Assembly (NCBI GenBank): GCA_965250305.1
Contig: CBDFNS010000023.1
Location: forward strand, 105,346-169,345
Direction: 5' to 3'
DNA length: 64,000 bases
From: Candidatus Multivoradales bacterium
Lineage (GTDB): Bacteria; Acidobacteriota; Thermoanaerobaculia; Multivoradales; J023
The translations under genes were made by a program, and so were the position numbers. Below, one piece after another: positions 6,383 to 52,830 of this stretch (position 1 is its first letter; the number at the start of each line of letters is the position of its first letter). Under the pieces are notes generated by a model that did not search any database, was not told the origin of the DNA, and saw only the letters and a program-made list of their open reading frames with translations.

Positions 6383-7594
6383 ATGGTCAGAGAGATGATG
6401 GACCTGCGCAAGCTTGATTGGGTTGGGGTGGTTCGGCAGGCCTGGGCCAAAGCGCAGAGCGATGATCTGGTTCAACGCAGCGCTGCACTGGCGTTCTTGA
6501 CCATGGTGTCCTTGGTGCCGCTGCTGGCCGCGTTGTCCTATCTGGGGGCACGAGCGTTCAGCGGTGCGCAAGACCAGCTGGTGGCCTTTCTGTGGTCCGT
6601 CTTGCCGTACTCGGAGGCCGCGGTCCAGCGCCAGTTGAGTGGCTTCCTCGAGCAGGCCAAGAGCATACGTGGTTTTGGCTTCCTTGGGTTCTTGGTCACG
6701 TCGCTGTTCGCGTTCATCGCGGTCGAGCGCACCATCAATCGGGTGTGGAACGTCAATCAACAGCGGCCCTTTTCGGTGCGCCTGCGGTCCTTCACGCTGG
6801 TGTTGTTCTGGGGCCCGTTGATGATCGGTGCGGCCTACTCGAGTTTGTTCCTGTTGGGTCGGCATCCGTTCCTGAGACCCTTGGTGCCGTTCACCATCAG
6901 CATGGTCGGCTTGACCGTGCTCTATTGGTTGGTACCGTTTACCAAAGTGCATCTCCGCAATGCTGCGATCGGCGGCCTGACCGCCGCGGTGTTGCTCGAG
7001 ATGCTACGCCAGGGATTTGGTTTTTACATCGGCTGGTTCCAACGTCTATCGATCATCTACGGTAGCTTTGGCTTGGCCTTGTTGTTCATGGCGTCGATCC
7101 AGCTGGTGTGGCTGATCGTGTTGCTCGGCAGTGAGGTCGCCTACTGCGTGCAGCATCGCGCGTTGTTTCTGCATCCGCGCGCCAGCACGGCACGGGTGGA
7201 TGCCAGCTGGCTCGGCCTGGTGGCGTTGGTGGCCATCGTCGACCACTTCAGGGTTGGTAGCCCCATCATGCCGCGGTCACAGCTCTGCGCGGTTTTGCGT
7301 ATGGAGGCGTCGGAGGTCGACGCGGTGGTAGAACCGCTGCTGGTTGCTGGGCGATTGGCGCCGAGTAGTGACGGTGAGGGTTTCCTGCTTGCCTGCGATC
7401 CTTATCAGCTACCGGTCGCTGAGGTGTTGGGCGACTACGACAAGGTGCCGGGGCTGAACCTCGACCGGTTGTCGCCCGACCTCGTCGAGCGTCTTACCAC
7501 GCTGCGCAGCGCCCTCGGCGCTGTCCGGACCGCGCACCTCGGGCCACAAACGGTAGCGGAAATCGTCGCGCCCCCTGAAGTATCCAAGGGGTAG
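6383..7594 (+). CDS. YihY/BrkB (virulence factor BrkB / RNase BN-like) family membrane protein with a C-terminal extension
   Basis: Typical segment AALAFLTMVSLVPLLAALSYL and six TM helices, then a roughly 130-aa soluble tail. Confidence 0.8.
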   Translation: MVREMMDLRKLDWVGVVRQAWAKAQSDDLVQRSAALAFLTMVSLVPLLAALSYLGARAFSGAQDQLVAFLWSVLPYSEAAVQRQLSGFLEQAKSIRGFGFLGFLVTSLFAFIAVERTINRVWNVNQQRPFSVRLRSFTLVLFWGPLMIGAAYSSLFLLGRHPFLRPLVPFTISMVGLTVLYWLVPFTKVHLRNAAIGGLTAAVLLEMLRQGFGFYIGWFQRLSIIYGSFGLALLFMASIQLVWLIVLLGSEVAYCVQHRALFLHPRASTARVDASWLGLVALVAIVDHFRVGSPIMPRSQLCAVLRMEASEVDAVVEPLLVAGRLAPSSDGEGFLLACDPYQLPVAEVLGDYDKVPGLNLDRLSPDLVERLTTLRSALGAVRTAHLGPQTVAEIVAPPEVSKG

Positions 7595-39272: not shown

Positions 39273-39956
39273 ATGGCTGTTGCGGTCATCGCAGATTCCC
39301 ATTTGGGTGGCCCGGGCGGCACTGCTGGACCGTTGATTGCCCAGTTGGATGCGCTGCCCGGCCAGGGTTGCGAACAGCTGATTCTCTTGGGTGATATTTT
39401 TCACGTGTGGGTTGGTGATCGTCGATTCGAAACCGATGAGGTTCGCGCGTTGGTTCCTGCGCTCGAACGTCTTCGGGCAGCGGGTGTCGCTATTGATTAC
39501 GTTGAAGGCAACCGGGACTTCTTCTTGGCCGACGGTCCGTATGCGCGGCTGTTTGACCAGGTCGCAACCGAGGTTGCGGTCACGGTCGACGGGGTTCGCT
39601 ACTTGGCTGTGCATGGTGATGGACTCAATGACCGGGATCGCCAGTATCTGTTTTGGCGCTGGCTCTCGAAGAGTGCGCTCAGCCGTTTTCTGATCAGGCG
39701 GCTGCCCGGAAGCCTGGCCCAGCGCCTGGTGCGGGGGACCGAAGCCAGGCTCGGACGAACCAACTTCAAGCACAAGATGCAAATCCCGGAGGCGCCCATT
39801 CGGCGCTATGGCGCGGCGCGGTTGGCCGAAGGGCACGATGTGTTGTTGTTGGGGCACTTTCATGCGCCCCACCGCTGGTCGCTGGCGTCGGGTGGCGAAG
39901 TCCACCTGCTCGATGCGTGGTTCAACAGCCGTAAGGTGGAGTGGCTCGGGCGGTGA
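39273..39956 (+). CDS. lpxH: UDP-2,3-diacylglucosamine diphosphatase (LpxH)-like metallophosphoesterase
   Basis: IADSHLG, LGDIFHVWVGD, GNRDF, HGD motifs parallel LpxH. Confidence 0.65.
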   Translation: MAVAVIADSHLGGPGGTAGPLIAQLDALPGQGCEQLILLGDIFHVWVGDRRFETDEVRALVPALERLRAAGVAIDYVEGNRDFFLADGPYARLFDQVATEVAVTVDGVRYLAVHGDGLNDRDRQYLFWRWLSKSALSRFLIRRLPGSLAQRLVRGTEARLGRTNFKHKMQIPEAPIRRYGAARLAEGHDVLLLGHFHAPHRWSLASGGEVHLLDAWFNSRKVEWLGR

Positions 39957-40188
39957 ACTGTACGCCTTTGATTCCGCAAGAGGTCTGGCCTCACCGTATG
40001 GCATGGTGATGTCGTCGCAGTTGCCGTCATGTCGGACGGGCTAGTTCGTTCGCCCGATCGCTTATCGAGGATGCTGAATATGACAAGATTGTTACAGTTT
40101 CGGAGAAGCAGTTTGGCCAGAGAGCCAGGCCGAGTTGGTGGTTGCGTTTGCGGCCAGCAATTGGTTTTGCGCAATCGGGAAGCACGTC

Positions 40189-41481
40189 ATGGTGGCTGAG
40201 AGTTTTGCAGTGCCAGCAGGGAAGGTGGCGCGCGGTACCGTGGCTGTTCCTGGCTCCAAGAGCATGACCCAGCGATACTTGAACTTGGCCTTGATCGGAC
40301 GTGCCCCGCTGGTCATACGGCGTCCGTTGCTCTCCGAGGATCCAAGACTTTTTCTCGACGCCTTGGGCGCTGTGGGTTTTGACGTGACGATCACGTCTGA
40401 TTCCGTGGTGCGCTTGGTGCCGGGGCCGGTGCCAGCGTCGGCGCGGATCTTTTGCGGCAACGGTGGCACCATGTTTCGTTTCTTGACCGCGGCACTGACG
40501 ACGGTGCCGGGCTCGTGGCGGCTGGACGGCGTTCCGCGCCTTCGAGAGCGACCGGTTACGCCGCTGGTTGCGGCGGTGCGACGTTTGGGAGCCAACATCG
40601 ATTGCCCGGAGCAACCGGGTCACGCGCCACTACAGATTCGCGGCGGTACGCTCGAAGGCGGTGTGACCGAGCTTGATGCCGGGGCATCGAGCCAGTACCT
40701 TTCGGCTTTGCTCATGGCAGCGTTGGCGGCCGCCGTTCCCACCGAAGTGATGGTTCGCACGCTCACCTCGGCACCGTATGTCGGGCTTACGTTGGCAGCG
40801 ATCGAACGTTTTGGTGGCGCCGTAGCTGTGGATCTTCGTGAAGACGGTAGCCGTTGCTATCGGGTTGTGCCGGCTAGGCTCGATGCAGGCGAAGTCGTGG
40901 TGGAGGGTGACTACTCGGCGGCGGCCTATCCTGCGGCCGCCGCTGCGCTCACCGGTGGCCCGGTGCGAATTCGCGGTCTCGAGCGCGGCTCTCGCCAGGG
41001 AGATCGACAATTCCTCGACCTGTTGGAAGACATGGGTGCTCGTGTGCGGTGGGAGGGCGACGAGCCGGTGATCGAAGCGGGTAGCCTCAACGCGGTTGAT
41101 ATCGACCTCTCGTCCATGCCGGACCAGGTACCGACCCTCGCGGCACTGGCGCCGTTCGCGCGTGGAACAACGAGGATTCGCAATGTTGCACACCTGCGGA
41201 TCAAAGAATCGGATCGCATCTTTGCCATGGCCGAGGAGCTTCGGAAAGCCGGTGCCGCCGTCAGCGAACATGCGGATGGTCTCGAGGTTGAGGGTTGCTG
41301 GGCCAAGACCGCACCGCCGACTTCGCCGGTCGTGATCAATACCCACGGTGATCACCGCATCGCCATGGCCATGGCGCTGGTAGGCCTTCGCCGACCGGGC
41401 TTGACCATTTCGAACCCGGATGTGGTCGCGAAGTCCTATCCTGATTTCTGGAACGATCTGGAGCAACTCCTCGTTGTATGA
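40189..41481 (+). CDS. aroA: 3-phosphoshikimate 1-carboxyvinyltransferase (EPSP synthase)
   Basis: Full-length EPSP synthase pattern (LPGSKS, ..GNGGT.., RIKESDRI, HGDHRIAMA); start ATG 40189 (MVAESF) is preferred over the upstream TTG of the ORF track. Confidence 0.9.
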   Translation: MVAESFAVPAGKVARGTVAVPGSKSMTQRYLNLALIGRAPLVIRRPLLSEDPRLFLDALGAVGFDVTITSDSVVRLVPGPVPASARIFCGNGGTMFRFLTAALTTVPGSWRLDGVPRLRERPVTPLVAAVRRLGANIDCPEQPGHAPLQIRGGTLEGGVTELDAGASSQYLSALLMAALAAAVPTEVMVRTLTSAPYVGLTLAAIERFGGAVAVDLREDGSRCYRVVPARLDAGEVVVEGDYSAAAYPAAAAALTGGPVRIRGLERGSRQGDRQFLDLLEDMGARVRWEGDEPVIEAGSLNAVDIDLSSMPDQVPTLAALAPFARGTTRIRNVAHLRIKESDRIFAMAEELRKAGAAVSEHADGLEVEGCWAKTAPPTSPVVINTHGDHRIAMAMALVGLRRPGLTISNPDVVAKSYPDFWNDLEQLLVV

Positions 41482-41655
41482 CCGGTGTGCGGGGTCCGGG
41501 CTCTCTTGCTTACCAGCGACGGTGACCACCAGCGGCGGTGACAATCTCATCACCTCGGTGATTGGGTCCGCAATCTGGCATCTGTGATTAAACCCAGTAC
41601 AGCTTCCCTGCGTCTAACGACTTAGTACATCCACCAACGGTCCCAGGGAGTCACC

Positions 41656-44115
41656 ATGAACCGTACCGAGATGAGGCACATGTTGCGCCGGCTGGCGCAC
41701 CGCCCCGGTTTCACCGCCGCTGCCATTTCGACCCTCGCACTCGGTATCGGCGCGACGGTTGCGATTTTTGCCGTCGTCTATGGTGTGCTCGTTCGGCCGC
41801 TGCCCTTTGCCGACACCGCGCGGTTGGTGGGCTTGTGGCACAGCGCCCCAGGCCTCGGATTCGACCAACTGAACCAGTCGTACGGCACCTACGCCCTGTA
41901 CCGAGACCGTTCCCAGACGCTCACGGATATCGCCCTTTACGATGTCGAGCCCTTCAACGTCGCCGGCACGGGCACACCGGAACGGCTGATCGGCACCCGA
42001 GCGACGGCATCGCTGTTCTCGGTGCTCGGCGTCAACCCAGCGGCCGGCCGGACTTTCAACGCCGAGGAAGACCATATGGGCGGACCGGATGTCGTGGTGC
42101 TCGGCCACGCGTTCTGGCACCGGCGATTCGGCGGCGCGGAGGATGCGATCGGTGCCGTGCTGACGATCGATGGCAAGCCTTGGGAAGTGATCGGGGTCAT
42201 GCCCGAGGGCTTCACCTTCCCGACCGAGGAAGTCGAGATCTGGGTACCACACCCAATCGACCCGAAAGAGCTTGCCGATGTGAATTTCAGCTACGACGTG
42301 GTTGCGCGCCTCGAGCCCGGCATCACGGTGGCCCAGGCGAGCGCCGAATTGGCCGCGCTGCTGCCCGAATTGCCCGCCGCCTACCCGGGGGCGCTCAGCG
42401 CGCAAATGCTCGAGCAAAGCGGCATGACCGCTTTCGCCAACCCGCTGCGCGATGATCAAGTGGGCGACGTTCGACGTCTACTATGGGTGCTACTCGCCGC
42501 CGTTGGCTTCGTGCTGTTGATCGCCTGTGCCAACGTCGCAAACCTGCTGCTCGTGCGGACCGAAGGCCGACACCAAGAGTTCGCGATTCGCGCCGCCCTG
42601 GGTGCCAGCCGCGGTCGACTGGCGCGCGGTTTGATCGGTGAGAGCTTCTTCCTGGCCGCGGTCGCCGGCACATTGGGCTTGGGCCTGGCGTGGCTCGGCA
42701 TTGGCGGCTTGCGGCTGCTCGATCCTGGCAACCTGCCGCGGCTGCACGATATTCGCATCGACGGGCCGGTGTGGTGGTTCACGCTCGCGGTTTCGGCTGC
42801 CGCCGGCTTGGCCTTCGGTGTGTTCCCCTCGCTTCGGCTGGGACATCGACTTCTCGAGGGCGGTCTGGCGGAGGGTGGCCGGGCCGGCATGACCGGGCGC
42901 AGCAGCCAACGCCTAAGGGGTGTTCTCGTGGTGACTCAGATGGCACTCGCTCTGGTTCTCTTGTTCAGCTCGGCCTTAATGTTGCGCACGTTCCAGGCTC
43001 TGCGGGGCGTCGACCCCGGCTTCGACCTCACGTCGGTCTTGACCCTACGCTTGAGCCTGCATGGCGAGCGCTACAGTGAGCCCGAGGCACGCGCACGCTT
43101 CTGGACCCGGCTGGTGGACGCCGCACGCGATCTGCCCGGCGCCGCCAACGCGGCAACCGTGCTCAACCTGCCGCTGACCGATGGCGACACCAACCCTGGG
43201 TACATCATCGAAGACTTCCCGCCGCAGCCGGACGATCCGCCGCTCGTGGCGCGGCAGAACTTCGTCACCGACGGGTACTTCGAGACCCTCGGCATTCCCA
43301 TTCTCAGTGGCCGGAGCATCGAGCGCCGCGACATCGATCAGCGCGCGCCGGCCGTGGTCGTGAGCGCTGCGTTCGCACGCCGCTTCTGGGGCGAATCGGA
43401 TCCACTCGGCAAACGGCTCAAGCGCGGCTTGCCGACGGATCAACGCGCGCCCTGGTACGACGTGGTTGGGGTCGCCGGCGACGTGCGAGACGACGATTTG
43501 AGCGGGGAGCCGGTCGAAATGGTCTACTTTCCGTTGCTGAGCCAAGAGGGCGATAGCAGCGGCTGGACTGCCTCGACCATGAGCCTGGCGGTGCGTGGCG
43601 GCGGTGCCGATCCATCGCACTTCGCACCGGCGTTGCGCGACTTGGTACGGCACACCGATCCGGAATTGCCGGTGATCCGGATGCGTACCACCGCCGAGAT
43701 CGCCCGCAACGCCATGGCGCGCACGACATTCACCATGACCTTACTGGCCGTGGCGTCGGCAATCGCCCTCGTGCTAGGCAGTGTCGGCGTGTATAGCGTG
43801 TTGGCGCATAGCGTAGCGCAGCGAACACGGGAAATCGGCGTGCGCCTGGCGCTCGGCGCGGGCCCGGGCCGGGTGCTCCGCCTGCTCTTCGGTGAAGGCA
43901 TGCGTCTGGTGTCGATCGGAATCGTGATCGGCCTGGTCGGGGCCATCGCCGTTGGCCGCGTACTTGCTTCGCTGCTGTTCGGGGTCACGGCGAGGGACCC
44001 CATGAGCCTTGCCTTCGTCGTCGCACTCTTGGCGTTGGTGGCCGCGGTCGCGTCGTGGGTGCCGGCCCGCCGTGCCGCACGCATCGCACCCACCGAGGCC
44101 TTGCGTCATCAATAG
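41656..44115 (+). CDS. FtsX-like ABC permease of the ADOP (duplicated orphan permease) family
   Basis: Hallmark N-terminus ..LRRLAHRPGFTAAAISTLALGIGATVAIFAVV..RPLPF..; two MacB-periplasmic + FtsX 4-TM modules; no adjacent ATPase; AGGGAG RBS 5 nt before ATG. Confidence 0.85.
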   Translation: MNRTEMRHMLRRLAHRPGFTAAAISTLALGIGATVAIFAVVYGVLVRPLPFADTARLVGLWHSAPGLGFDQLNQSYGTYALYRDRSQTLTDIALYDVEPFNVAGTGTPERLIGTRATASLFSVLGVNPAAGRTFNAEEDHMGGPDVVVLGHAFWHRRFGGAEDAIGAVLTIDGKPWEVIGVMPEGFTFPTEEVEIWVPHPIDPKELADVNFSYDVVARLEPGITVAQASAELAALLPELPAAYPGALSAQMLEQSGMTAFANPLRDDQVGDVRRLLWVLLAAVGFVLLIACANVANLLLVRTEGRHQEFAIRAALGASRGRLARGLIGESFFLAAVAGTLGLGLAWLGIGGLRLLDPGNLPRLHDIRIDGPVWWFTLAVSAAAGLAFGVFPSLRLGHRLLEGGLAEGGRAGMTGRSSQRLRGVLVVTQMALALVLLFSSALMLRTFQALRGVDPGFDLTSVLTLRLSLHGERYSEPEARARFWTRLVDAARDLPGAANAATVLNLPLTDGDTNPGYIIEDFPPQPDDPPLVARQNFVTDGYFETLGIPILSGRSIERRDIDQRAPAVVVSAAFARRFWGESDPLGKRLKRGLPTDQRAPWYDVVGVAGDVRDDDLSGEPVEMVYFPLLSQEGDSSGWTASTMSLAVRGGGADPSHFAPALRDLVRHTDPELPVIRMRTTAEIARNAMARTTFTMTLLAVASAIALVLGSVGVYSVLAHSVAQRTREIGVRLALGAGPGRVLRLLFGEGMRLVSIGIVIGLVGAIAVGRVLASLLFGVTARDPMSLAFVVALLALVAAVASWVPARRAARIAPTEALRHQ

Positions 44116-44148
44116 GCACTTGGTGCGCGCCCAAGCGTTTCCTCGAGA

Positions 44149-44421
44149 ATGCCAAATATGACAAGATTGTTACAGTTTCGGAACATCGAAAAAGAACCTA
44201 GAGAGGGCCAGGCCGAATCGGTGGCTGCGTTTGCGGCCAGCACTTCAACCTGTGCAATGGGGGAGCACGTCATGGTGGCTGAGGAATCGGATCGCATCTT
44301 TGCCATGGCCATGGCGCTGGTAGGCCTTCGCTGGCTGGGCATGACCATTTCAAACCCGGATGTGGTCGCGAAATCCTATCCTGATTCTTGGCACAATCTG
44401 CAGCAACTTCTCGTCGTATGA
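44149..44421 (+). pseudogene. decayed partial duplicate of aroA (leader + first 4 codons fused in-frame to two short 3' segments, 90-aa ORF)
   Basis: 44139-44285 is about 85% identical to 40061-40200. It continues with the aroA segment ESDRIFAMA (as at 41206-41233) and then MAMALVGLR...LLVV* (as at 41370-41481). The internal junction lies at a GCCATGGCC direct repeat. Confidence 0.6.
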
Positions 44422-47400
44422 CCAGTGTGCGGGAGGTCGCCCTGGAGCATTCGGCGCTGGTCGCCGAACCCGGTGGGGTGCCACTTGCGCAAGCACGATT
44501 GACGGATCAACAGCGGTTGGCGGCCGTGCTCCAGGCAGCGGCGGTGCGCGCTCACCTCGATCATGGTGGCCTGACGCTACGGGACGGATGGGGATGTGGT
44601 CGTTGGCATGCCGATGGGCGGCTCAGCGTTCAGCGCGTCGTGCCTGGTCCCGCCAACGAGTACGCCCAGGTGGCCCTAAGCCGCCTGATTCGGTTGCTGT
44701 TTCGCACCGAGATGGTTGCCGGGCGCGGAATGGCTCGAAGGGCCGCCCGCAGGCTGCTCGAGCGATGGGGTCAGTTGGTAGCGGCCGAACCCGCGGACCG
44801 GGCGGTTGCCGACGTCCTGGAGCTGGCGCCTTTTCTTTGGCAGCCTGCATTTGCCGTGGCACGGAAGGGCTTGGCGGCGCGACACGGTGCGTCCGGATTG
44901 TGGGTGGCTGGGCCGGGACGAAGCCGGCGCCGGTTGCTGGTGCCGGCCCATGATTTGGGCTCCTTGCAGACGTTGCTCGCCTCGGATGACGCCCATTCGG
45001 TTTGGTCCGGCGTGGGTGAGCCTGCAGAAGATCCCCATGACCTCCTGGCCCGCGGGCGTTACCAACAGGCACTGATTGCTTGGGAGCAGCGACCTCCGCG
45101 TGGCACGCGGTCGCGACTGGCGTGCGGGGAGGCAGCCATTGCAATGGGGCGGTATGTACACGCGCTCGAATCCCTGCGTGAGGTCCGTGGTGTGCGCGCT
45201 CGGATCCTGCGTGCACGCGCGCAGGTGGGTCTCAATGAGCTCAAGGCCGCGCGCGCGACCCTCGAACGCCTCGGAAGAGCGAACCTGACCGGGCCTGAAA
45301 CGGTTCAGGCCGCGGAAGTTGCCGTGCGGGTTGCAGGCAACCTAGGACGTCCCCAAGCGGCCGATCCGTGGGTCGCCCGTGCACGGGCGTCCGCTCGCGG
45401 TCCGTGGGCTTTGCGCGCGCGCGTCTTGGCCGCGCTGGCGGCCTGGGATCAGCGCGATTTCGTCGCCTCGAATGTCCATCTGGAAGCTTCACGAAAGGCG
45501 TCCGACGAGCCCAATCTGGCTTGGCGTTGGCATCATGCTCGGGCGCTGTGCGCCCAGAGCGAACAAAACGGTATCGAGGTCATCGAGCATGAGGCGCTCG
45601 CCCTGCGCCATGAGCGGCGCAGGCTGAGTCGCGCCTGGGCTGGGCGACTGTGGAACGGTATCGGCCACGGTCGGGTCATGATCGACGATCTTCCGGGTGC
45701 CGAGCGTGCGTTTCGGCATGCATACCACCTTCTGCGTCGTTGTGACGGACCCGCTGCACTGGCGCTTGCAGCGCCCAATCTGGCCGAGACCCAGATGCGC
45801 CGTGGTCGTTTGAGTGGGGTCGCTGGCATCCTCGAGACCTCGGTGGCCAACAATCGCAACGCTGGCAATGTCCGGGCCCTGTTCTTCGATCTCGTGCTGT
45901 GGATGCGATTTGAACTCGCGCATGGTCGTATGGCCGCAGCGATTGGTTGGTACGACGAGGTCCGGACATTGCTCGATAGCCGACCCGATGCCGGCGATGC
46001 CTCCATACCCGCCGTCATGATGGCCCGCGCCCAGGGGTGGTTGGGGCGTGCCGCGTCCGCGCGTTCTTTTCTTGACTCGGGTGGCACAAAGGCATTGGTC
46101 GAACTCGAGCCGGAGGAGCGGCCCGCGGTCCTGGCCTTGGCAGGACAGATGGATGAAAGTGAGCGTTGGGCTCACGGAACCCCCTGGGCGGCATTATGGA
46201 AAGCGCTTGCAGTGGGCCGGGCGCCGTCGCCGCGTGTCTGGGAGCTGCTCGAAAGTCTGGAGCCCTATCGTGCTGCACGGCTGGTCTTCGACTGCGAGGC
46301 CGCTCGTCCCGGAACCGTACCGGCGCATCGGATCGTACGTGCGGTTGCGGACCTGCGGGCCGCCGGTGCTGAGGGTTTGGCTGAAAGACTCGAAGGACGC
46401 TCCTTGAGTCCTTGGTTGGCAATCGAACAGTTTTTGGGCCGGGCGCCCTCAGACGGATTGGAGGAAATGGGTGCCCTGTTAGAACGAACGGGTCATTCCG
46501 GCGCCGAGATCATTTTTGTGCCGACTGGAGATCGTGAGCAAGGTCCACGAATTGTCGTTGCAGGTGTGGGTGGTCCGAAGAGCCTTGTTGCAACCGTTGC
46601 CGAAGGTGAGATTCGTCTGCGTGCGAAGCGGCTTGATCCGATGCTACGTGGATTGTTTTCGATCATTCGTCGGCACCTCGAACCAAGGGCCCGACCCGTG
46701 GCGAAGCAGGTGCCTGTTACATCAGAGTCAGGGATTCTCGGTGAAAGTGAAGTGCTCGCCCAGGCACTGAACCGGCTTCGGCGACTGGCGGTGCTCGAGC
46801 TTCCGATGCTAATTCTGGGTGAGAGTGGTACCGGGAAAGAGCTTGCAGCGCGCTTGGTACATCGAAGCAGTCCTCGGGCAGGCGAGCTGTTCGTTGCGGT
46901 GAACTGTGCTGCGCTTCCCGAAAACTTAATTTTGTCGGAGCTTTTTGGTCACGTTCGAGGTGCGTTTACTGGGGCTGATCGCGACCGGGCCGGATTCTTC
47001 GAGTCGGCGCGTGGTGGTAGCGTTTTTCTTGATGAGATCGGCGACCTGCCACTCTACGCTCAAGGGATGTTACTTCGCGTCTTGCAAGAGAGCGAAATAC
47101 GTCGGGTGGGTGAAAGTCACAGCCGTCGGGTTGATGTTCGGATCGTGGCGGCGACCCACCGGGATCTTTCCGCGATGGTCAAGGAAGGGTCGTTTCGCGA
47201 AGACCTGCTCTTTCGGCTAAAAGTTGCCTCTGTCGAGTTGCCACCACTGCGTGATCGCGGTGATGATGTATTTCTGTTGGCTGAACACTTCCTGCGTCGT
47301 CAGGCAGGTGGCCGTACGCTTCGATTGAGCAAGTCGGCACGACAGCGCCTTGGCCAGCATACGTGGCCAGGGAACGTGAGAGAGTTGGTCAATGTATTGG

Positions 47401-47642
47401 CCGTCGCGGCGGCGTTGAGTGATGACGAAGTTGTTTCCGCGGCCAGTCTCGACCTTCCGGCCGCTGCGAACCGGTCATCGGAAGGGTTCTATCATCAAGA
47501 AGTGGAATCCTTGCGGCGGCGCTTGATCGAACGAGCGCTCGATTGGACGGGGGGCAATCGGGCGGCCGCCGCACGCCGACTCGGACTCAGTCGGCAGGCG
47601 CTCTCCTACCTTGTTCGACAGTTGGGTATTTCGCGGCCATAG
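44418..47642 (+). CDS. sigma-54-dependent transcriptional activator (AAA+ sigma-54 interaction domain + Fis-type HTH) with a roughly 750-aa N-terminal helical/TPR-like domain
   Basis: GESGTGKE Walker A, GAFTGA sigma-54 contact motif, ESE..RVG arginine finger region, C-terminal AAARRLGLSRQALSYLVRQLGI HTH; start ATG 44418 overlaps the relic stop (ATGA). Confidence 0.85.
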   Translation: MTSVREVALEHSALVAEPGGVPLAQARLTDQQRLAAVLQAAAVRAHLDHGGLTLRDGWGCGRWHADGRLSVQRVVPGPANEYAQVALSRLIRLLFRTEMVAGRGMARRAARRLLERWGQLVAAEPADRAVADVLELAPFLWQPAFAVARKGLAARHGASGLWVAGPGRSRRRLLVPAHDLGSLQTLLASDDAHSVWSGVGEPAEDPHDLLARGRYQQALIAWEQRPPRGTRSRLACGEAAIAMGRYVHALESLREVRGVRARILRARAQVGLNELKAARATLERLGRANLTGPETVQAAEVAVRVAGNLGRPQAADPWVARARASARGPWALRARVLAALAAWDQRDFVASNVHLEASRKASDEPNLAWRWHHARALCAQSEQNGIEVIEHEALALRHERRRLSRAWAGRLWNGIGHGRVMIDDLPGAERAFRHAYHLLRRCDGPAALALAAPNLAETQMRRGRLSGVAGILETSVANNRNAGNVRALFFDLVLWMRFELAHGRMAAAIGWYDEVRTLLDSRPDAGDASIPAVMMARAQGWLGRAASARSFLDSGGTKALVELEPEERPAVLALAGQMDESERWAHGTPWAALWKALAVGRAPSPRVWELLESLEPYRAARLVFDCEAARPGTVPAHRIVRAVADLRAAGAEGLAERLEGRSLSPWLAIEQFLGRAPSDGLEEMGALLERTGHSGAEIIFVPTGDREQGPRIVVAGVGGPKSLVATVAEGEIRLRAKRLDPMLRGLFSIIRRHLEPRARPVAKQVPVTSESGILGESEVLAQALNRLRRLAVLELPMLILGESGTGKELAARLVHRSSPRAGELFVAVNCAALPENLILSELFGHVRGAFTGADRDRAGFFESARGGSVFLDEIGDLPLYAQGMLLRVLQESEIRRVGESHSRRVDVRIVAATHRDLSAMVKEGSFREDLLFRLKVASVELPPLRDRGDDVFLLAEHFLRRQAGGRTLRLSKSARQRLGQHTWPGNVRELVNVLAVAAALSDDEVVSAASLDLPAAANRSSEGFYHQEVESLRRRLIERALDWTGGNRAAAARRLGLSRQALSYLVRQLGISRP

Positions 47643-47811
47643 GCTTCGGCCTCCAGGAATGGGGTTAGCTTGCAAGGGCGAGGCATTCCTCGCTCACGGC
47701 CGCAAGACGAGTCTTCGTGCTCGATCAGCTTCGTGAGCGATTCAACCAATGTTTGGCCGCGTGGGGGTACCCCAACAGCATCGATGAGCGTTTGGAGCGT
47801 AAGGCCATTGC

Positions 47812-47840
47812 TTGACTTCTCCCTTGGAGTGAAATAAACA
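47812..47840 (+). promoter_or_regulatory. candidate sigma-70-type promoter for the tandem-HTH gene
   Basis: TTGACT (47812-47817) - 17 nt - TAAACA (47835-47840), 46 nt upstream of ATG 47886; by-eye match only. Confidence 0.25.
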
Positions 47841-47885
47841 TAGCCTTTCGAACTTTGTACATTGAGCAGTGACGGAGGTATTTTC

Positions 47886-48608
47886 ATGGCGAGAAAGAAG
47901 TCAACGAAGCGCGCGGCTGGTCCCAAGGCGCTTCTCACACTGACGGAAGTATCCAAGCGGACCGGCATCTCGATGCCGACTCTGCAGCGATACAAGAAGC
48001 TCTTCCAGGCACGGATTCCATCGGTGGGAAGTGGTCGATCACAGCGATACAAGCCTGAGGCGCTCGACATCTTCCGCCAGCTGAAGGAAGAGAACATCAA
48101 GAAACGCGGACGGCCGCGCAAGATCGCGTCAGCCACGCCGGCGCCCAAACCAAGACGGGTTGTTCGTGCGAAGAAGGTCACCGCACCTGCGAGCCCAAAG
48201 AAGAAGGCGCCGGTCAAGCGCGGTGGCTTGCTGACGCTGACGGAGATTGGTTCGCGGACCGGGATCTCGTATCCAACGCTCCTCCGGTATGTGAAGAATC
48301 ACATCGAACAGATACCTCACGTTGGTGAGGGCCGGACGCGGCGATACCGGGCAACGGCCGTGAAGGTTTTCGAGAAGCTTCGCGCCAAGAGTCCACGGGG
48401 ACGCGCGGCGGCCACGCCCAAACGTAAGCCAGGCCGGCCTCCGGGCCGCCCGCCCGCCACGGGTGCGAAACCCGTTGCCGCGACAAGAGATGCTGGGCTT
48501 GGCGCGCGAGTGAGGTCACTCGAAGCCTCCCATGCTCGGTTGATCAAGGCCATCGAGCGTTTGGAGAAGGCCGTCAAGCAGCCGGTGCGATTGGTTGTGA
48601 AAAGCTAG
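47886..48608 (+). CDS. DNA-binding protein with two tandem MerR/excisionase-like HTH modules separated and followed by AT-hook / Lys-Pro-rich linkers
   Basis: Internal repeat LLTLTEVSKRTGISMPTLQRYKK.../LLTLTEIGSRTGISYPTLLRYVK...; AT-hooks KKRGRPRK and KRKPGRPPGRPP; GGAGG RBS 7 nt upstream of ATG 47886. Confidence 0.6.
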   Translation: MARKKSTKRAAGPKALLTLTEVSKRTGISMPTLQRYKKLFQARIPSVGSGRSQRYKPEALDIFRQLKEENIKKRGRPRKIASATPAPKPRRVVRAKKVTAPASPKKKAPVKRGGLLTLTEIGSRTGISYPTLLRYVKNHIEQIPHVGEGRTRRYRATAVKVFEKLRAKSPRGRAAATPKRKPGRPPGRPPATGAKPVAATRDAGLGARVRSLEASHARLIKAIERLEKAVKQPVRLVVKS

Positions 48609-48662
48609 CGACGCTCCGCCTCAGACCGACGAGCGATGTACTCGCTGCGATGGCCGAACGGA

Positions 48663-48806
48663 AATCCCCCTCGATCCCCCTTTAAGAAAGGGGGAGGGAA
48701 TCCCCCTCGATCCCCCTTTAAGAAAGGGGGAGGGAATCCCCCTCGATCCCCCTTTAAGAAAGGGGGAGGGAATCCCCCTCGATCCCCCTTTAAGAAAGGG
48801 GGAGGG
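48663..48806. repeat. four perfect tandem copies of a 36-bp palindromic unit (AATCCCCCTCGATCCCCCTTTAAGAAAGGGGGAGGG) plus a degenerate fifth copy to about 48870
   Basis: Read directly; each unit contains the hairpin CCCCCTTT-AAG-AAAGGGGG; lies in the convergent intergenic region between the HTH gene and thiL. Confidence 0.85.
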
Positions 48807-48957
48807 CCGGACCCCGCAACCCGTCTTTCCCCCCTTTTCTAAAGGGGGGCCAGGGGGGATTTTCTGCCAGGCAAGCTTAGCATTCAATATCTGGCTCATC
48901 TGTAAAGATGTTGGTGGTTCTAGTGACCTAGCACCAAAAGCGGCTGGGTTCGTCTTG

Positions 48958-49959
48958 TTAGAAGCTCCGCCTCGGCGGGGCTTTTGATGCATCGAGATGG
49001 TCCCAGCCCCGATCCGGTAAGGTTTCGATCATGGTGCCCTTGCGCACCTGAATCTTGCGGTTCTCGCTCAGGGCGCCGATCCGGTGACACTTCCACTCCG
49101 ATGGTGGTTGGATCTCGGGCGGTAGTGAGAATAACAGAACGTAATCCTCGCCGCCAAAGAGCTGTTGTGATTGTAGATCCATTGCCAAGGCCGTCGCGAG
49201 CGCTTGGCCACCCTTCGAGGTCGGCAACGCTGCTACATCGATTTGGGCGCCTACTCTGCTGGCGCGGCAAAGGCGATGAAGGTCTCTTGCCAAGCCGTCG
49301 GAGAGGTCGATGGCTGCGCCGGAAGATGTACAGCTCGACAGCCATCGGCCAAGGCCAAGTTGGGGCGATGGCAACAACTGTCGCCGTACCGCACTTCGTG
49401 CCGCTTGGGTCAGAGATCGTGGATCCTCGAAGGAGCCTGGCAGGCTCACCCTACTGCCCTCCAGCGCGGCGCCTCGGCGCAGCAATTGGAGACCCAACGC
49501 TGCTTCACCCAGGGTGCCGCCGAGCCAGAGGTGGTGTCCAGGCTGCCCACCCTTCCGCCGAAGCCATCGGCCATCGGGACGTCGGCCGAGAAGTGTTAGG
49601 CTGGCGCTGAAAGTCGGCTGGGTGGCGAGGTCACCGCCCGCGATGCGCAGGTCGTGGTGGCGAGCGTCTTTTGCGATGGCGCGGAAGAACCGTCGATGAT
49701 CGTAGTAGTCCGGTGCCGCGAGGGCAAGAAATCCGACGGTCGGTTCAGCGCCCATCGCCGCAAGGTCGCTGAGGTTGACAGCCAACAGCCGGCGGGCGGC
49801 GATGGCGGGATCCACATCCAAAGGTAAGTGGACGCCCTCGATTTGTTGGTCAACCGTGACCGCCCAAGCTTCGGATTCGAGCACAGCGGCATCGTCGCCG
49901 ATAGCCGCACCTCCTGGAAGGGATCCCCGCAGCCACCGTACGAGGGTGTTCTCGTCCAT
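48958..49959 (-). CDS. thiL: thiamine-monophosphate kinase
   Basis: AIGDDAAVL ... LAVNLSDLAAMGAEP AIR-synthase-related fold motifs. Confidence 0.8.
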   Translation of the reverse strand: MDENTLVRWLRGSLPGGAAIGDDAAVLESEAWAVTVDQQIEGVHLPLDVDPAIAARRLLAVNLSDLAAMGAEPTVGFLALAAPDYYDHRRFFRAIAKDARHHDLRIAGGDLATQPTFSASLTLLGRRPDGRWLRRKGGQPGHHLWLGGTLGEAALGLQLLRRGAALEGSRVSLPGSFEDPRSLTQAARSAVRRQLLPSPQLGLGRWLSSCTSSGAAIDLSDGLARDLHRLCRASRVGAQIDVAALPTSKGGQALATALAMDLQSQQLFGGEDYVLLFSLPPEIQPPSEWKCHRIGALSENRKIQVRKGTMIETLPDRGWDHLDASKAPPRRSF

Positions 49960-49973
49960 CGGGACACCGCGGG

Positions 49974-52310
49974 CTAGCGCAACGCCAGCTCAACCACTTC
50001 GTCCATATGCTCGACCGGACGGAAGGTGAGCCTGCGTCGCAAGCCGGAAGGGAGCTCAGGGAGATCACGCTCGTTGCGGCTGGGGATAATGACGGTGGTG
50101 ATACCCGCGGTCAGCGCAGCGAGGGCTTTCTCCTTCAGGCCGCCAATGGGCAACACCGCTCCGCGGAGGGTGATCTCGCCGGTCATGGCAAGGGTGTGAT
50201 TGATGGGGCGATCGGTTACCGCGGAGAGCACAGCGGTCGCGATGGTGATGCCCGCCGACGGACCGTCCTTGGGGACGGCCCCGGCCGGGGCATGAATATG
50301 AAAGTCGCGTTCGTTGAAGATGGCGGATTCAAGACCGTTTCGTTCCGCAAAGCCGCGGGCATAGGTCATGGCAGCCTGCGCCGACTCCTGCATGACATCA
50401 CCCAGCTTGCCAGTCAAGCGCAATTTTCCTTTGCCCAAGACGGTCGACACTTCGATTATCATCAACTCGCCGCCATGGGCCGTCCAGGCTAGACCGGTTG
50501 CGACCCCAACGCGATCCTGATCCAGCAGTCCCTCGTCCTCGTGTTGGGCAACCCCGAGTAGTTTGACGACTTGTTTGGGGCCGACGACCCTTCGCTTGGG
50601 TCCCTTTTCGACCACGGTGATGGCCGTCTTACGGCACAGCGCCGCGATCGATCGCTCGAGGTTGCGGAGCCCGCTTTCGCGGGTGTAGCCACGGATAAGG
50701 GTCTTGAGGCCGCGCTCGGTCAGGTGCAGATGCTCGTCCTCGAGGCCGTGTGCGCCGCGCTGTTTGGGAAGCAGATGGCGTCGAGCGATCGCGCGCTTCT
50801 CATCTTCCGTATAGCCACTCAGCCGGAGGACCTCCATGCGATCGAGAAATGCCGGCTGAATCGGATCGAGCTGGTTGGCCGTGGTGATGAAAAGGACCTG
50901 CGAAAGATCGTATGGAAGGCCGAGGTAATGGTCGCGGAAGCTGACGTTCTGTTCTGGGTCGAGCACTTCGAGCAAGGCAGAGGAAGGGTCGCCACGGTAG
51001 TCAGCGCCGATCTTGTCGATCTCGTCGAGCATGAATACTGGGTTGCTCGAGCCGGCTTGGTGAATGCCCTGAATGATCCGTCCGGGCATGGCGCCGACGT
51101 ACGTCCGACGGTGGCCACGAATCTCGGCCTCGTCCCGTACGCCGCCGAGTGAGACGCGCACAAACGCTCGGCCGAGCGCGCGGGCGATCGACCGTCCGAG
51201 TGACGTCTTGCCGACGCCAGGTGGGCCCACGAAACAAAGAATGGGGGCGCGGGCGTCGGACTTGAGCTGGCGCACCGCCAACAGCTCGATCATGCGCTGC
51301 TTGATGTTCTTGAGGCCGTAGTGATCTGCATCGAGCACGGCGCGGGCGCGGGCGAGGTCGAGGTCGTCTTCGCTCAGATTGCCCCAGGGGAGTCCGATCA
51401 GCCAGTCGAGAAACGTACGGATGACCGTCGTCTCGGCGCTGTCCGGGTGGCTGCGCTCGAGGCGTTTGATCTGCTTCTCGAGTTCCTCACAGGCTTCTTC
51501 CGGCAACTTCTTCTCGGTTGCTTTGCGCCGGTACTCTTCGACCTCGGTTTGCAGCTCGTCGCCTTCGCCGAGTTCGTCTTGGATGGTTCGCAGCTGCTGG
51601 CGGAGAAAATACTCGCGCTGCGACCGATCGAGCTCGGTTCGTGCCTGGTTGGCGATGTCCTGTTGAAGACTCAGGACATGCACTTCGCGTTCCAGGTGGT
51701 CGCAAACCGCGGTGAGGCGTGCGATCGGGTCACCCATTTCGAGCAACGTCTGCGCTTCATCGACTTCGAGATCGAGGTTGCTTGCCGCCAGGTCAGCCAG
51801 ACGGCCCGGATCCTCGAGATTGGCGGCGATCACCACCACTTCTGGTGAGATGGTGCGTCCGAGATGGACCGCACGCTCGAGCCGGTCGACAACCGTTCGG
51901 GCAAGTGCCTCGAGCTCGTCGGTACTGGGGGGTGTCGGCAGCGTGGGGATCGGTGACACGTTCGCTTCAAGAAAGGGCTCGGTTTGGCCGATATGATCCA
52001 CTCGAATCCGAGTTAGCCCTTGGACCAAGATTCGGGTCCGACCATCGGGAAGCTTGAGCATCCGCATGATGGACGCTGCGATGCCGACTTCGAAGAGATC
52101 CTTGGGCCCCGGGTCGTCAACATCCGGATTACGCTGGCCCACCAGCGCCACCATCCGCTCTTCGGCCAGCGCGTGATCGATGGCAGCGGTTCCGACGTCG
52201 GGTCCCACCGAGAGCGGCGTAATGGCGAACGGAAAGATCACCGCATCGCGTAACGGCAAGACGGGAAGAATGTCGGGGAGGATCAGGTCTTCGAGCGCAG
52301 GATCATTCAT
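49974..52310 (-). CDS. lon: ATP-dependent protease Lon (endopeptidase La)
   Basis: LON N-domain, AAA+ (GPPGVGKTS, Walker B FMLDEIDK), catalytic Ser in PKDGPSAGI; start ATG 52310 (MNDPALEDL...) avoids overlap with nrdR. Confidence 0.9.
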   Translation of the reverse strand: MNDPALEDLILPDILPVLPLRDAVIFPFAITPLSVGPDVGTAAIDHALAEERMVALVGQRNPDVDDPGPKDLFEVGIAASIMRMLKLPDGRTRILVQGLTRIRVDHIGQTEPFLEANVSPIPTLPTPPSTDELEALARTVVDRLERAVHLGRTISPEVVVIAANLEDPGRLADLAASNLDLEVDEAQTLLEMGDPIARLTAVCDHLEREVHVLSLQQDIANQARTELDRSQREYFLRQQLRTIQDELGEGDELQTEVEEYRRKATEKKLPEEACEELEKQIKRLERSHPDSAETTVIRTFLDWLIGLPWGNLSEDDLDLARARAVLDADHYGLKNIKQRMIELLAVRQLKSDARAPILCFVGPPGVGKTSLGRSIARALGRAFVRVSLGGVRDEAEIRGHRRTYVGAMPGRIIQGIHQAGSSNPVFMLDEIDKIGADYRGDPSSALLEVLDPEQNVSFRDHYLGLPYDLSQVLFITTANQLDPIQPAFLDRMEVLRLSGYTEDEKRAIARRHLLPKQRGAHGLEDEHLHLTERGLKTLIRGYTRESGLRNLERSIAALCRKTAITVVEKGPKRRVVGPKQVVKLLGVAQHEDEGLLDQDRVGVATGLAWTAHGGELMIIEVSTVLGKGKLRLTGKLGDVMQESAQAAMTYARGFAERNGLESAIFNERDFHIHAPAGAVPKDGPSAGITIATAVLSAVTDRPINHTLAMTGEITLRGAVLPIGGLKEKALAALTAGITTVIIPSRNERDLPELPSGLRRRLTFRPVEHMDEVVELALR

Positions 52311-52356
52311 CGATCGATTGTCCGTAATCGGCACCAGCACAGGGCCGGCACCGCGC

Positions 52357-52830
52357 TCAAGTGTCGTCGCCCGATTCGGGCTCGGCCAAGAGGCTCTGTA
52401 CTTCTTCGACAAATGCGCCGAGATCTTCGAACCGCCGATACACCGAAGCGAAGCGTACGTAGGCCACCGGGTCGAGCTCGCGCAAGCGGTCCATGATCAG
52501 ATTGCCGATCTCACGGGTTGAGATTTCCCGCTCTTCCTTCTGGTGCAACCGCCGTTCGATGCCGCCCACCAGATCTTCGAGTGTCTTGAGCGGAATGGGT
52601 CGCTTCTCACAGGCCCGAAGAACGCCACCCAGGAGCTTGGCGTGATCGAATTCTTCCCGTCGGCCATTCGCCTTGACTACCATATAGGGGATGCTCTCGA
52701 TCTGCTCGTAGGATGTGAACCTGCGTTTGCAGTCGAGGCATTCTCGTCGCCGACGGATCGTGGCGCCTTCACGGCTTTCACGAGAATCGACGACACGATC
52801 CCGGTTGACCGAACAGAACGGGCATTTCAT
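52357..52830 (-). CDS. nrdR: transcriptional repressor NrdR
   Basis: MKCPFCS...CLDC zinc ribbon + ATP-cone. Confidence 0.9.
   Translation of the reverse strand: MKCPFCSVNRDRVVDSRESREGATIRRRRECLDCKRRFTSYEQIESIPYMVVKANGRREEFDHAKLLGGVLRACEKRPIPLKTLEDLVGGIERRLHQKEEREISTREIGNLIMDRLRELDPVAYVRFASVYRRFEDLGAFVEEVQSLLAEPESGDDT

Follow-up and report, generated by a model that had tools for sequence, protein, structure and literature searches.

Duplication of an aroA unit around an orphan ADOP permease gene, and an in-frame aroA remnant that may help to express a sigma-54-dependent activator

The DNA considered here is a 64 000-nt stretch (the window) of Candidatus Multivoradales bacterium, an acidobacterium (assembly GCA_965250305.1, contig CBDFNS010000023.1, positions 105,346 to 169,345 of the forward strand). 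Four elements follow one another on its plus strand: an intact aroA gene, encoding EPSP synthase; a gene for a permease of the ADOP family (acidobacterial duplicated orphan permease); a short remnant of a second aroA copy, which we call the relic; and the gene for a large sigma-54-dependent activator. A 1.43-kb unit, made up of a leader, aroA and activator codons 1 to 5 or 6, is present in two direct-orientation copies with the permease gene between them, and the second copy has lost 381 of its 430 aroA codons through two deletions. What survives of this copy may now serve to express the activator.

The identities of the three intact genes are clear. The aroA product scores 383.8 bits against TIGR01356 (cutoff 287.25) over model positions 1-413 of 415, and matches PF00275 with an E-value of 1e-99 over positions 6-417 of 417. 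The permease (coding sequence 41656-44115, 819 aa) scores 874.4 bits against TIGR03434 (cutoff 622.3; model positions 4-802 of 803), with MacB_PCD and FtsX each matched in two stretches, a duplicated architecture. It is an orphan, having aroA upstream, relic and activator downstream and no adjacent ABC ATPase gene, and no paralogue of it was found within the window. The activator contains PF00158 (E-value 9e-65), AAA_lid_14 and HTH_8, that is, the AAA+ sigma-54 interaction domain and a C-terminal Fis-type helix-turn-helix (HTH), and fits the description of a sigma-54-dependent bacterial enhancer-binding protein. No NCBIfam equivalog model was exceeded at its cutoff (the best, NorR, gave 318 bits vs 476), so the activator belongs to a subfamily without a name. 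It has full-length homologues at 57-44% identity. The long N-terminus of this ~1070-aa protein is unique; metagenome scans with its N-terminal 760 aa, and with an alignment of the N-termini from the window and from L007, the nearest relative in our comparison (no closer genome was found in the collections searched), returned no relatives.

Repeat architecture and its two ages

BLASTN of 44100-44460 against 39950-41650 gave three collinear plus-strand blocks that relate the relic (44143-44433) to the aroA unit, and the similarity on which the original prediction rested is far above chance. The first block pairs 44143-44283 with 40065-40200 (113 of 141 positions, 80%, four gaps, E-value 3e-25); the repeat of the leader is therefore real, at 80% with gaps and not at about 85% as first estimated. 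A separate repeat search recovered the same families; in it the first block falls into two ungapped stretches, one of 40 nt at 93% identity and one of 82 nt at 84%. The second block, 44284-44310, is identical to 41206-41232 (27 of 27, E-value 3e-10) and encodes ESDRIFAMA, which bears out the proposed jump from the leader and codons MVAE to this part of aroA. The third pairs 44302-44433 with 41362-41493 (118 of 132, 89%, E-value 3e-45), and shares with the second a 9-nt overlap, GCCATGGCC. Against the concatenated aroA pieces the relic shows 45 differences in 294 alignment columns (84.7% identity). No third copy of the unit was found within the window.

The limits of the unit can be placed closely. 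On the left, homology of the first leader ends between ~40043 and 40065. On the right, ATGACCGGTGTGCGG, 3′ of the intact aroA stop, is a copy of the activator's ATGACCAGTGTGCGG, its first five codons, and as predicted it then diverges, with homology gone by ~41497; the duplicated unit thus terminates within activator codon 6. The activator N-terminus MxxVR also occurs in the L007 activator; what follows the intact aroA is therefore native activator sequence that has been displaced.

From its aroA-type ATG the relic runs for 150 nt, 49 codons comprising MVAE, ESDRIFAMA, the last 36 aroA codons and TGA, all in frame. Retention of the aroA end and stop had been described correctly; coordinates given earlier were within a base or two and are corrected here (aroA ATG at 40189, activator ATG at 44418, relic ATG at 44272). 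Calling the three retained pieces A, B and C, the A/B deletion removed 1005 nt (40201-41205) with 0 nt of microhomology, and the B/C deletion removed 138 nt across the 9-nt repeat. A microhomology-mediated origin, proposed for both, suits the B/C junction but not the A/B junction.

The differences between the copies are not spread evenly. A 68-nt run without mismatch lies over both deletion junctions (permutation P = 1.35e-4) and consists, by direct string identity, of the aroA pieces 40181-40200, 41206-41232 and 41371-41391 (20, 27 and 21 nt). Its flanks are only 79% (13 of 62 positions differ) and 86% identical (14 of 102 differ; post hoc Fisher P = 6e-5). Such a pattern is not what a single old copy decaying uniformly would give, and it contradicts the simple decay of an old downstream copy that was initially envisaged. 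Since the run crosses both junctions, the deletions must be younger than the divergence of the flanks. The second aroA body may have stayed identical to the intact gene, or been converted by it, up to a time not long before the deletions. Alternatively, the centre of the relic may have been re-synthesised from intact aroA in a repair event with template jumps, and the 27-nt middle block would then have arisen at the same time as the two junctions. A less likely cause of the run is selection at the nucleotide level over the first 20 codons.

Table 1. Coordinates in the window of the two unit copies, the insert and the activator gene
Feature	Coordinates	Strand	Basis or relation
Leader of intact aroA (copy 1)	40065..40188	+	80% identical to 44143-44271; homologous to L004 and L010 aroA leaders
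Intact aroA, EPSP synthase, 430 aa	40189..41481	+	PF00275, TIGR01356
Displaced activator start ATGACCGGTGTGCGGGGTC (MTGVR...), right end of unit 1	41478..41497	+	Aligned with 44418-44440
Inserted segment of ~2.65 kb carrying the ADOP permease gene	41498..44142	+	TIGR03434
Relic leader (copy 2), core at 44157-44167, Shine-Dalgarno GGGGGAG at ~44259-44265	44143..44271	+	BLASTN, alignment, anti-Shine-Dalgarno pairing
Relic mini-ORF, 49 codons	44272..44421	+	aroA-type ATG to aroA stop, ATGA overlap with activator ATG
68-nt aroA-identical stretch over both deletion junctions	44264..44331	+	String identity, permutation
Sigma-54-dependent activator, 1074 aa, intact, without its own Shine-Dalgarno	44418..47642	+	PF00158, AAA_lid_14, HTH_8

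Gene order in relatives and the arrival of the permease

In four independent lineages (AroA 63-67% identical) aroA lies directly before the orthologous activator gene, the arrangement for which a check in relatives had been suggested. The two genes overlap by 4 nt (-4) in L004, L005 and L006 and by 8 nt (-8) in L010, and are separated by 4 nt (+4) in L008 and L009 and by 10 nt (+10) in L014. Downstream of the activator in L004, L008, L010 and L014 come a MerR-like HTH gene, an AIRS-domain gene and lon, and the window has the same order. A metagenomic protein of 1606 aa, P0180, has both EPSP-synthase and sigma-54 activator domains and is called as an aroA-activator fusion; this single open reading frame (ORF) could be a true fusion or the result of a lost stop codon. 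The adjacency in four lineages indicates that leader-aroA-activator is the ancestral state. A scan of genome contigs with AroA found distant relatives only, at ≤42% identity, and look-ups of window proteins by exact sequence, the AroA representative P0001 among them, matched no existing record.

The order aroA / activator / MerR-like HTH / AIRS / Lon forms a conserved acidobacterial block (window 40189-52412), with NrdR also present in L004 and L010. It would tie a shikimate-pathway gene to a sigma-54 regulator at the level of translation. A tRNA-Lys(CTT) gene lies on the minus strand between the HTH gene and the AIRS gene (48755-48831); tRNA genes are common integration sites, and nothing mobile was seen at this one.

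The permease has a different history from its neighbours. Orthologues at 77, 74 and 69% identity, nearly all of them 819 aa long, sit in three unrelated contexts, and homology between these loci and the window is limited to the coding sequence. The window gene also has the highest GC content (0.666) and third-position GC content (GC3, 0.798) among 40 window genes. On this comparison of contexts and composition, we count the permease as a newcomer at the aroA-activator locus. Together with the alignment blocks and the adjacency of aroA and activator in relatives, its orthologues elsewhere uphold the central proposal of the original prediction, that a unit of aroA and the activator start was duplicated and that the ADOP permease gene sits between the copies.

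Within the inserted segment the permease coding sequence is preceded by a flank of ~158 nt and followed by one of ≤27 nt. Each of the three orthologues (in L011, L012 and L013) is likewise an 819-aa single gene in a different neighbourhood with flanks that are not conserved, which suggests that orphan ADOP permease genes relocate as single-gene units. The 5′ flank in the window, which shows no conservation with the flanks of the orthologues, contains two tandem 15-mers, ACCAGCGACGGTGAC and ACCAGCGGCGGTGAC, at a spacing of 16 (41512-41542), a candidate operator for the permease gene.

The nearest relative also has the two genes apart. In L007, whose contig opens 8 nt ahead of aroA, this gene ends 420 nt upstream of the activator, and the 18 nt before the activator ATG match the window aroA tail at 14 of 18 positions (fixed position, P = 4e-5). 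A 21-codon ORF there has a Shine-Dalgarno (SD) pairing of -9.4 and ends in an ATGA overlap with the activator. The rearrangement had been taken as recent; given L007, with its separated aroA and its mini-ORF from the aroA tail, the separation of aroA from the activator may be older or recurrent. No significant permease or aroA-body remnant was found in the 420-nt spacer, and an insertion of the permease shared by L007 and the window was rejected on this ground. Matches in L007 to the relic A/B junction (P = 0.32) and to the segment after aroA (P = 0.42) were not significant and were not used. Compared over the codons that it retains, the relic shows 91% identity to window aroA, sharing window-specific states, vs 66% to L007 aroA; it was thus copied from, or converted by, window-lineage aroA after the split from L007. 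This closer similarity favours independent events in the two genomes, or conversion.

We reconstruct the following history. The ancestral operon would have comprised the conserved leader, aroA and the large sigma-54 activator gene, the two genes meeting or overlapping at the aroA stop and the activator start. Duplication of the 1.43-kb unit would have left the single foreign ADOP gene exactly between the copies, either in one complex event, by template switching or by Campbell-type integration (homologous recombination of a circular intermediate), or by tandem duplication and then insertion. By either one-event route the insert ends up flanked by direct repeats. In the two-event route it would have had to enter a target no more than tens of nucleotides long. 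The upstream copy would have been the working aroA, the downstream body staying identical to it, or being re-copied from it, until recently, when the two in-frame deletions removed most of that body. For the structural core of this account (ancestral aroA-activator operon, unit duplication flanking an acquired ADOP gene, recent in-frame loss of the second body) our estimate of the probability is about 0.9.

Expression signals and the possible role of the relic

The relic is an aroA fragment by descent; it is not an enzyme and is dead as a protein. It scores 22.4 bits against TIGR01356 (cutoff 287.25), over model positions 375-413 only, and a Pfam search with a 90-aa ORF that includes it gave no match. 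Its seven amino-acid differences from window aroA all fall within the last 29 codons. At five of them (R402, P403, F420, D423 and E425) aroA retains the outgroup-conserved residue, so the change occurred in the relic; at the other two, 405 and 422, the outgroups themselves differ. With conserved residues changed and no family match beyond the aroA C-terminus, AroA-like or other peptide function was rejected.

The translation signals around it are uneven. Anti-SD pairing was computed with a generic anti-SD sequence, and 40 window genes were compared. The activator ATG has the weakest pairing of these (+1.2 kcal/mol), whereas the relic ATG, preceded by GGGGGAG, has a pairing of -8.4 kcal/mol that is stronger than in all 40. 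The SD of aroA itself is GGGAAG (-4.3 kcal/mol), and two substitutions in the relic gave GGGGGAG. In GTATGACC (44416-44423) relic and activator, both on the plus strand, share a 4-nt stop-start overlap, with the TGA at 44419-44421 and the ATG at 44418-44420. The 90-aa ORF originally described (44149..44421) does exist and ends at this TGA, although it is probably not the translated unit: its ATG at 44149 has a pairing of +0.3 and no SD and lies upstream of the putative -10 element, the first ATGs falling inside or upstream of the promoter-like core described below. The SD-led ORF of 49 codons is the plausible translated unit, for which the strong SD at the relic ATG is indirect support.

Four-nucleotide overlaps of this type couple translation by termination-reinitiation (Huber et al. 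2023, PMC10666635). The final 15 nt of the upstream gene are enough in E. coli and Haloferax if ribosomes read into the overlap, and a gap of ~20 nt nearly abolishes the coupling (PMC10666635).

The leader contains a conserved core, TATGACAAGAT, at 40079-40089 and 44157-44167 (both on the plus strand), within 28 nt that are identical in the two copies; the neighbouring leader has indels and ~80% identity. The core lies 110 nt upstream of the aroA ATG. This 11-mer is exact in L004 and has one mismatch in L010 and one in L008, and the L010 block ATTCCAAAGAATCTCTGAGTATGACAAG is common to L004 despite different upstream genes. L014 has the variant TATGGCAGAAT and L007 has TGTGCCAAGAT, the latter before its activator. 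In the six leaders the positions TGnCAnnnT are invariant, and the core always precedes the first operon gene by 67-232 nt. Shuffle tests support homology of the window leader with those of L004 (P = 0.001) and L010 (P = 0.016). The conservation that had been read as the mark of a promoter or 5′ untranslated region therefore extends to the aroA operon of relatives, and supports a promoter or operator role. As read from the sequence, the core is a candidate extended -10 promoter element, with TG at -15/-14, A at -11 and T at -7, and with C at -12 where T is usual.

In L004 a metallophosphoesterase coding sequence crosses the core (6480-6492), its stop falling inside TATGACAAGATGA; the orthologous gene in the window ends ~120 nt before the core (39954-40089). 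The core is thus kept whether coding, as in L004, or non-coding, as in the window, which argues for a function at the DNA or RNA level. In L008 (3484-3553), and also in L009, an 18-nt unit, TTGGATGGAAACACTGCC, forms a repeat of 3.9 copies, 98% identical, directly upstream of the leader core of the aroA operon. This array may represent regulator-binding sites; no equivalent was found in the window.

Other roles for the leader and the relic were considered and rejected. Rfam, searched with 39900-44500 at E-values up to 1, gave no relevant match (one chance microRNA match falls inside the permease gene), and the folds of both leaders are no more stable than those of shuffled sequences (z -0.1 to -0.9). 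These null results led us to reject a structured or known RNA leader (riboswitch, attenuator or small RNA), for which the leader had been put forward as worth checking. A 7-bp hairpin, GGTTGCG/GCGGCC, is common to both leader copies and lacks statistical support. Matches to the sigma-54 promoter TGGCAC-N5-TTGCW with up to two mismatches number 32 in the window, 28.5 being expected, and none falls in 39957-40188, 41482-41655 or 44116-44417; the permease and the relic as direct sigma-54 targets were accordingly rejected, with matches at chance level and none in the relevant spacers. Substitutions in the relic (TTCTGGAACGATCTGGAG to TCTTGGCACAATCTGCAG) create a TGGCAC, the sigma-54 -24 box, at 44389-44394, 24 nt before the activator ATG. 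It too was rejected as a sigma-54 promoter, having no GC at the -12 spacing, and is probably coincidental.

We propose that the relic acts as an expression adapter. The second copy has kept the promoter-like leader core, the start codon of aroA behind a strong ribosome-binding site, an abbreviated open frame and the stop/ATG overlap, exactly the parts that activator expression would need. Transcription would start downstream of the permease, and the translated 49-codon ORF would hand ribosomes to the SD-less activator start by termination-reinitiation. That the relic persists by supplying a promoter and a coupling ORF to an activator without SD has, in our estimate, a probability of about 0.5. 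More tentatively, one may go further and suppose that the remnant is selectively maintained, with activator transcription and ribosome delivery as its sole function, that the same solution arose or persisted in both the window and L007, and that the centre was rebuilt recently from aroA by multi-jump templated repair, with both junctions made at once.

The same history could also have left a relic that is junk, the activator being expressed by read-through from the aroA or permease promoters and by SD-independent initiation, with frame, deletions and SD all coincidental; we regard this as the main rival reading, with a chance of clearly less than one half. Several results favour such a neutral pseudogene remnant and count against the adapter. 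No intrinsic terminator is predicted on the plus strand between aroA, permease and relic, so read-through could make a promoter in the relic unnecessary; terminator-like sites occur at chance level. The median SD of the window genes is -3.0 and many are weak; SD-independent initiation is thus common here, and a missing SD is no proof of dependence on coupling. The relic tail has six synonymous and seven non-synonymous substitutions, with a ratio of non-synonymous to synonymous rates (dN/dS) of ~0.35 (P = 0.08) that is compatible with neutrality and does not discriminate between it and constraint, and five of the seven amino-acid changes lose an outgroup-conserved AroA residue. An ORF would be expected to stay open after these 13 substitutions 68% of the time, and the prior probability that both deletions are multiples of 3, as they are, is 1/9, which makes the retained frame weak evidence. 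As for the promoter, the C at -12 of the core is unfavourable, a sigma-70 consensus scan requiring a -35 box returned 0 promoters, and the leader-like 21-mer of L007 is not significant when taken alone (P = 0.11). What a neutral remnant leaves to coincidence is the 28-nt core, perfectly kept beside an indel-bearing leader and conserved across lineages; an SD now stronger in the relic than in aroA, ahead of the activator with the weakest of 40; the intact stop-start overlap; and the analogous SD-led mini-ORF in L007.

A second alternative concerns age, and is compatible with either view of function. The duplication may have taken place in the common ancestor of the window and L007, the arrangement being kept by gene conversion and the permease arriving later. 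The 420-nt separation in L007, with its aroA-tail sequence and mini-ORF before the activator, would follow from this, and a relic with flanks of ~80-86% and a centre of 100% is as conversion would give. We find it unlikely, since even the flanks at 79-86% are far closer to the aroA unit of the window than L007 is, the retained codons are 91% identical to window aroA vs 66% to L007 aroA, and the L007 spacer has no detectable permease or aroA body and only the non-significant leader-like match; moreover, an intact donor aligned across the junctions would restore the deleted DNA, and not keep the junctions. An assembly artefact, i.e. a chimera or a collapsed or expanded repeat, might be suspected in a metagenome-derived 580-kb contig, and is very improbable because copies only ~85% identical with specific deletions are not assembler-made, the unit/insert junction shares <10 nt, too short for a k-mer join, and gene order on both sides agrees with the synteny of relatives, with composition continuous except at the permease.

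If the relic is functional, the locus would be a natural example of an operon that survives the insertion of a foreign gene by duplication of the upstream gene, which keeps promoter and translational coupling available to the downstream gene, the redundant body then being trimmed in frame. Some pseudogene fragments beside intact genes would then be load-bearing expression elements, which bears on annotation and on the interpretation of small ORFs. The locus also lends itself to the study of termination-reinitiation in nature, beyond the model organisms, and its mosaic identity records duplication, homogenisation and deletion in a form that can be dated. Should the relic be neutral, what is left is simply a well-resolved case of duplication, insertion and decay.

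Comparison with known systems

Segmental or tandem duplication followed by pseudogenisation is the closest general parallel: there are two direct 1.43-kb copies, one intact and the other stripped of most coding sequence, with changes at outgroup-conserved residues in the relic. Here, however, a foreign gene occupies the very joint of the duplication, what the losing copy has kept is precisely its signals for regulation and translation, and the identity mosaic has two ages where uniform decay would have one.

Replicative template switching (fork stalling and template switching, FoSTeS, or microhomology-mediated break-induced replication, MMBIR) is the mechanism to which complex duplication-insertion rearrangements are attributed; short templated patches at repair junctions belong with them. 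The locus resembles such products in having a duplication with unrelated DNA at its joint, a 27-nt patch that lies between two breakpoints and matches a template close by, and one junction with 9-nt microhomology; the other junction is without microhomology, and template switching would be one possible mechanism.

The junction of relic and activator resembles the ATGA coupling of Huber et al. 2023 (PMC10666635) in its single strand, its TGA/ATG overlap and its downstream start without Shine-Dalgarno. It differs in that the upstream partner is a 49-codon remnant and not a gene, and in that coupling is here inferred, for an uncultured acidobacterium. The relic also recalls upstream or leader ORFs that control the translation of regulators, being a short SD-led ORF that overlaps the start of a regulatory gene; here, though, the peptide is an aroA fragment and not a dedicated leader peptide, and there is no sign of sensing by stalling or attenuation, nor any significant RNA structure or Rfam match.

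With its duplicated MacB_PCD and FtsX domains and no adjacent ABC ATPase, the permease is an ordinary member of the ADOP family (TIGR03434), whose notable feature in this comparison is single-gene mobility, as seen in the three neighbourhoods of its orthologues. The ingredients of the locus are all familiar ones: segmental duplication, pseudogenisation, ATGA coupling and orphan ADOP genes. The configuration is the unusual part, a housekeeping gene cut in frame down to its expression signals before a regulator to which it was formerly coupled, with a two-age mosaic of identity to the intact copy.

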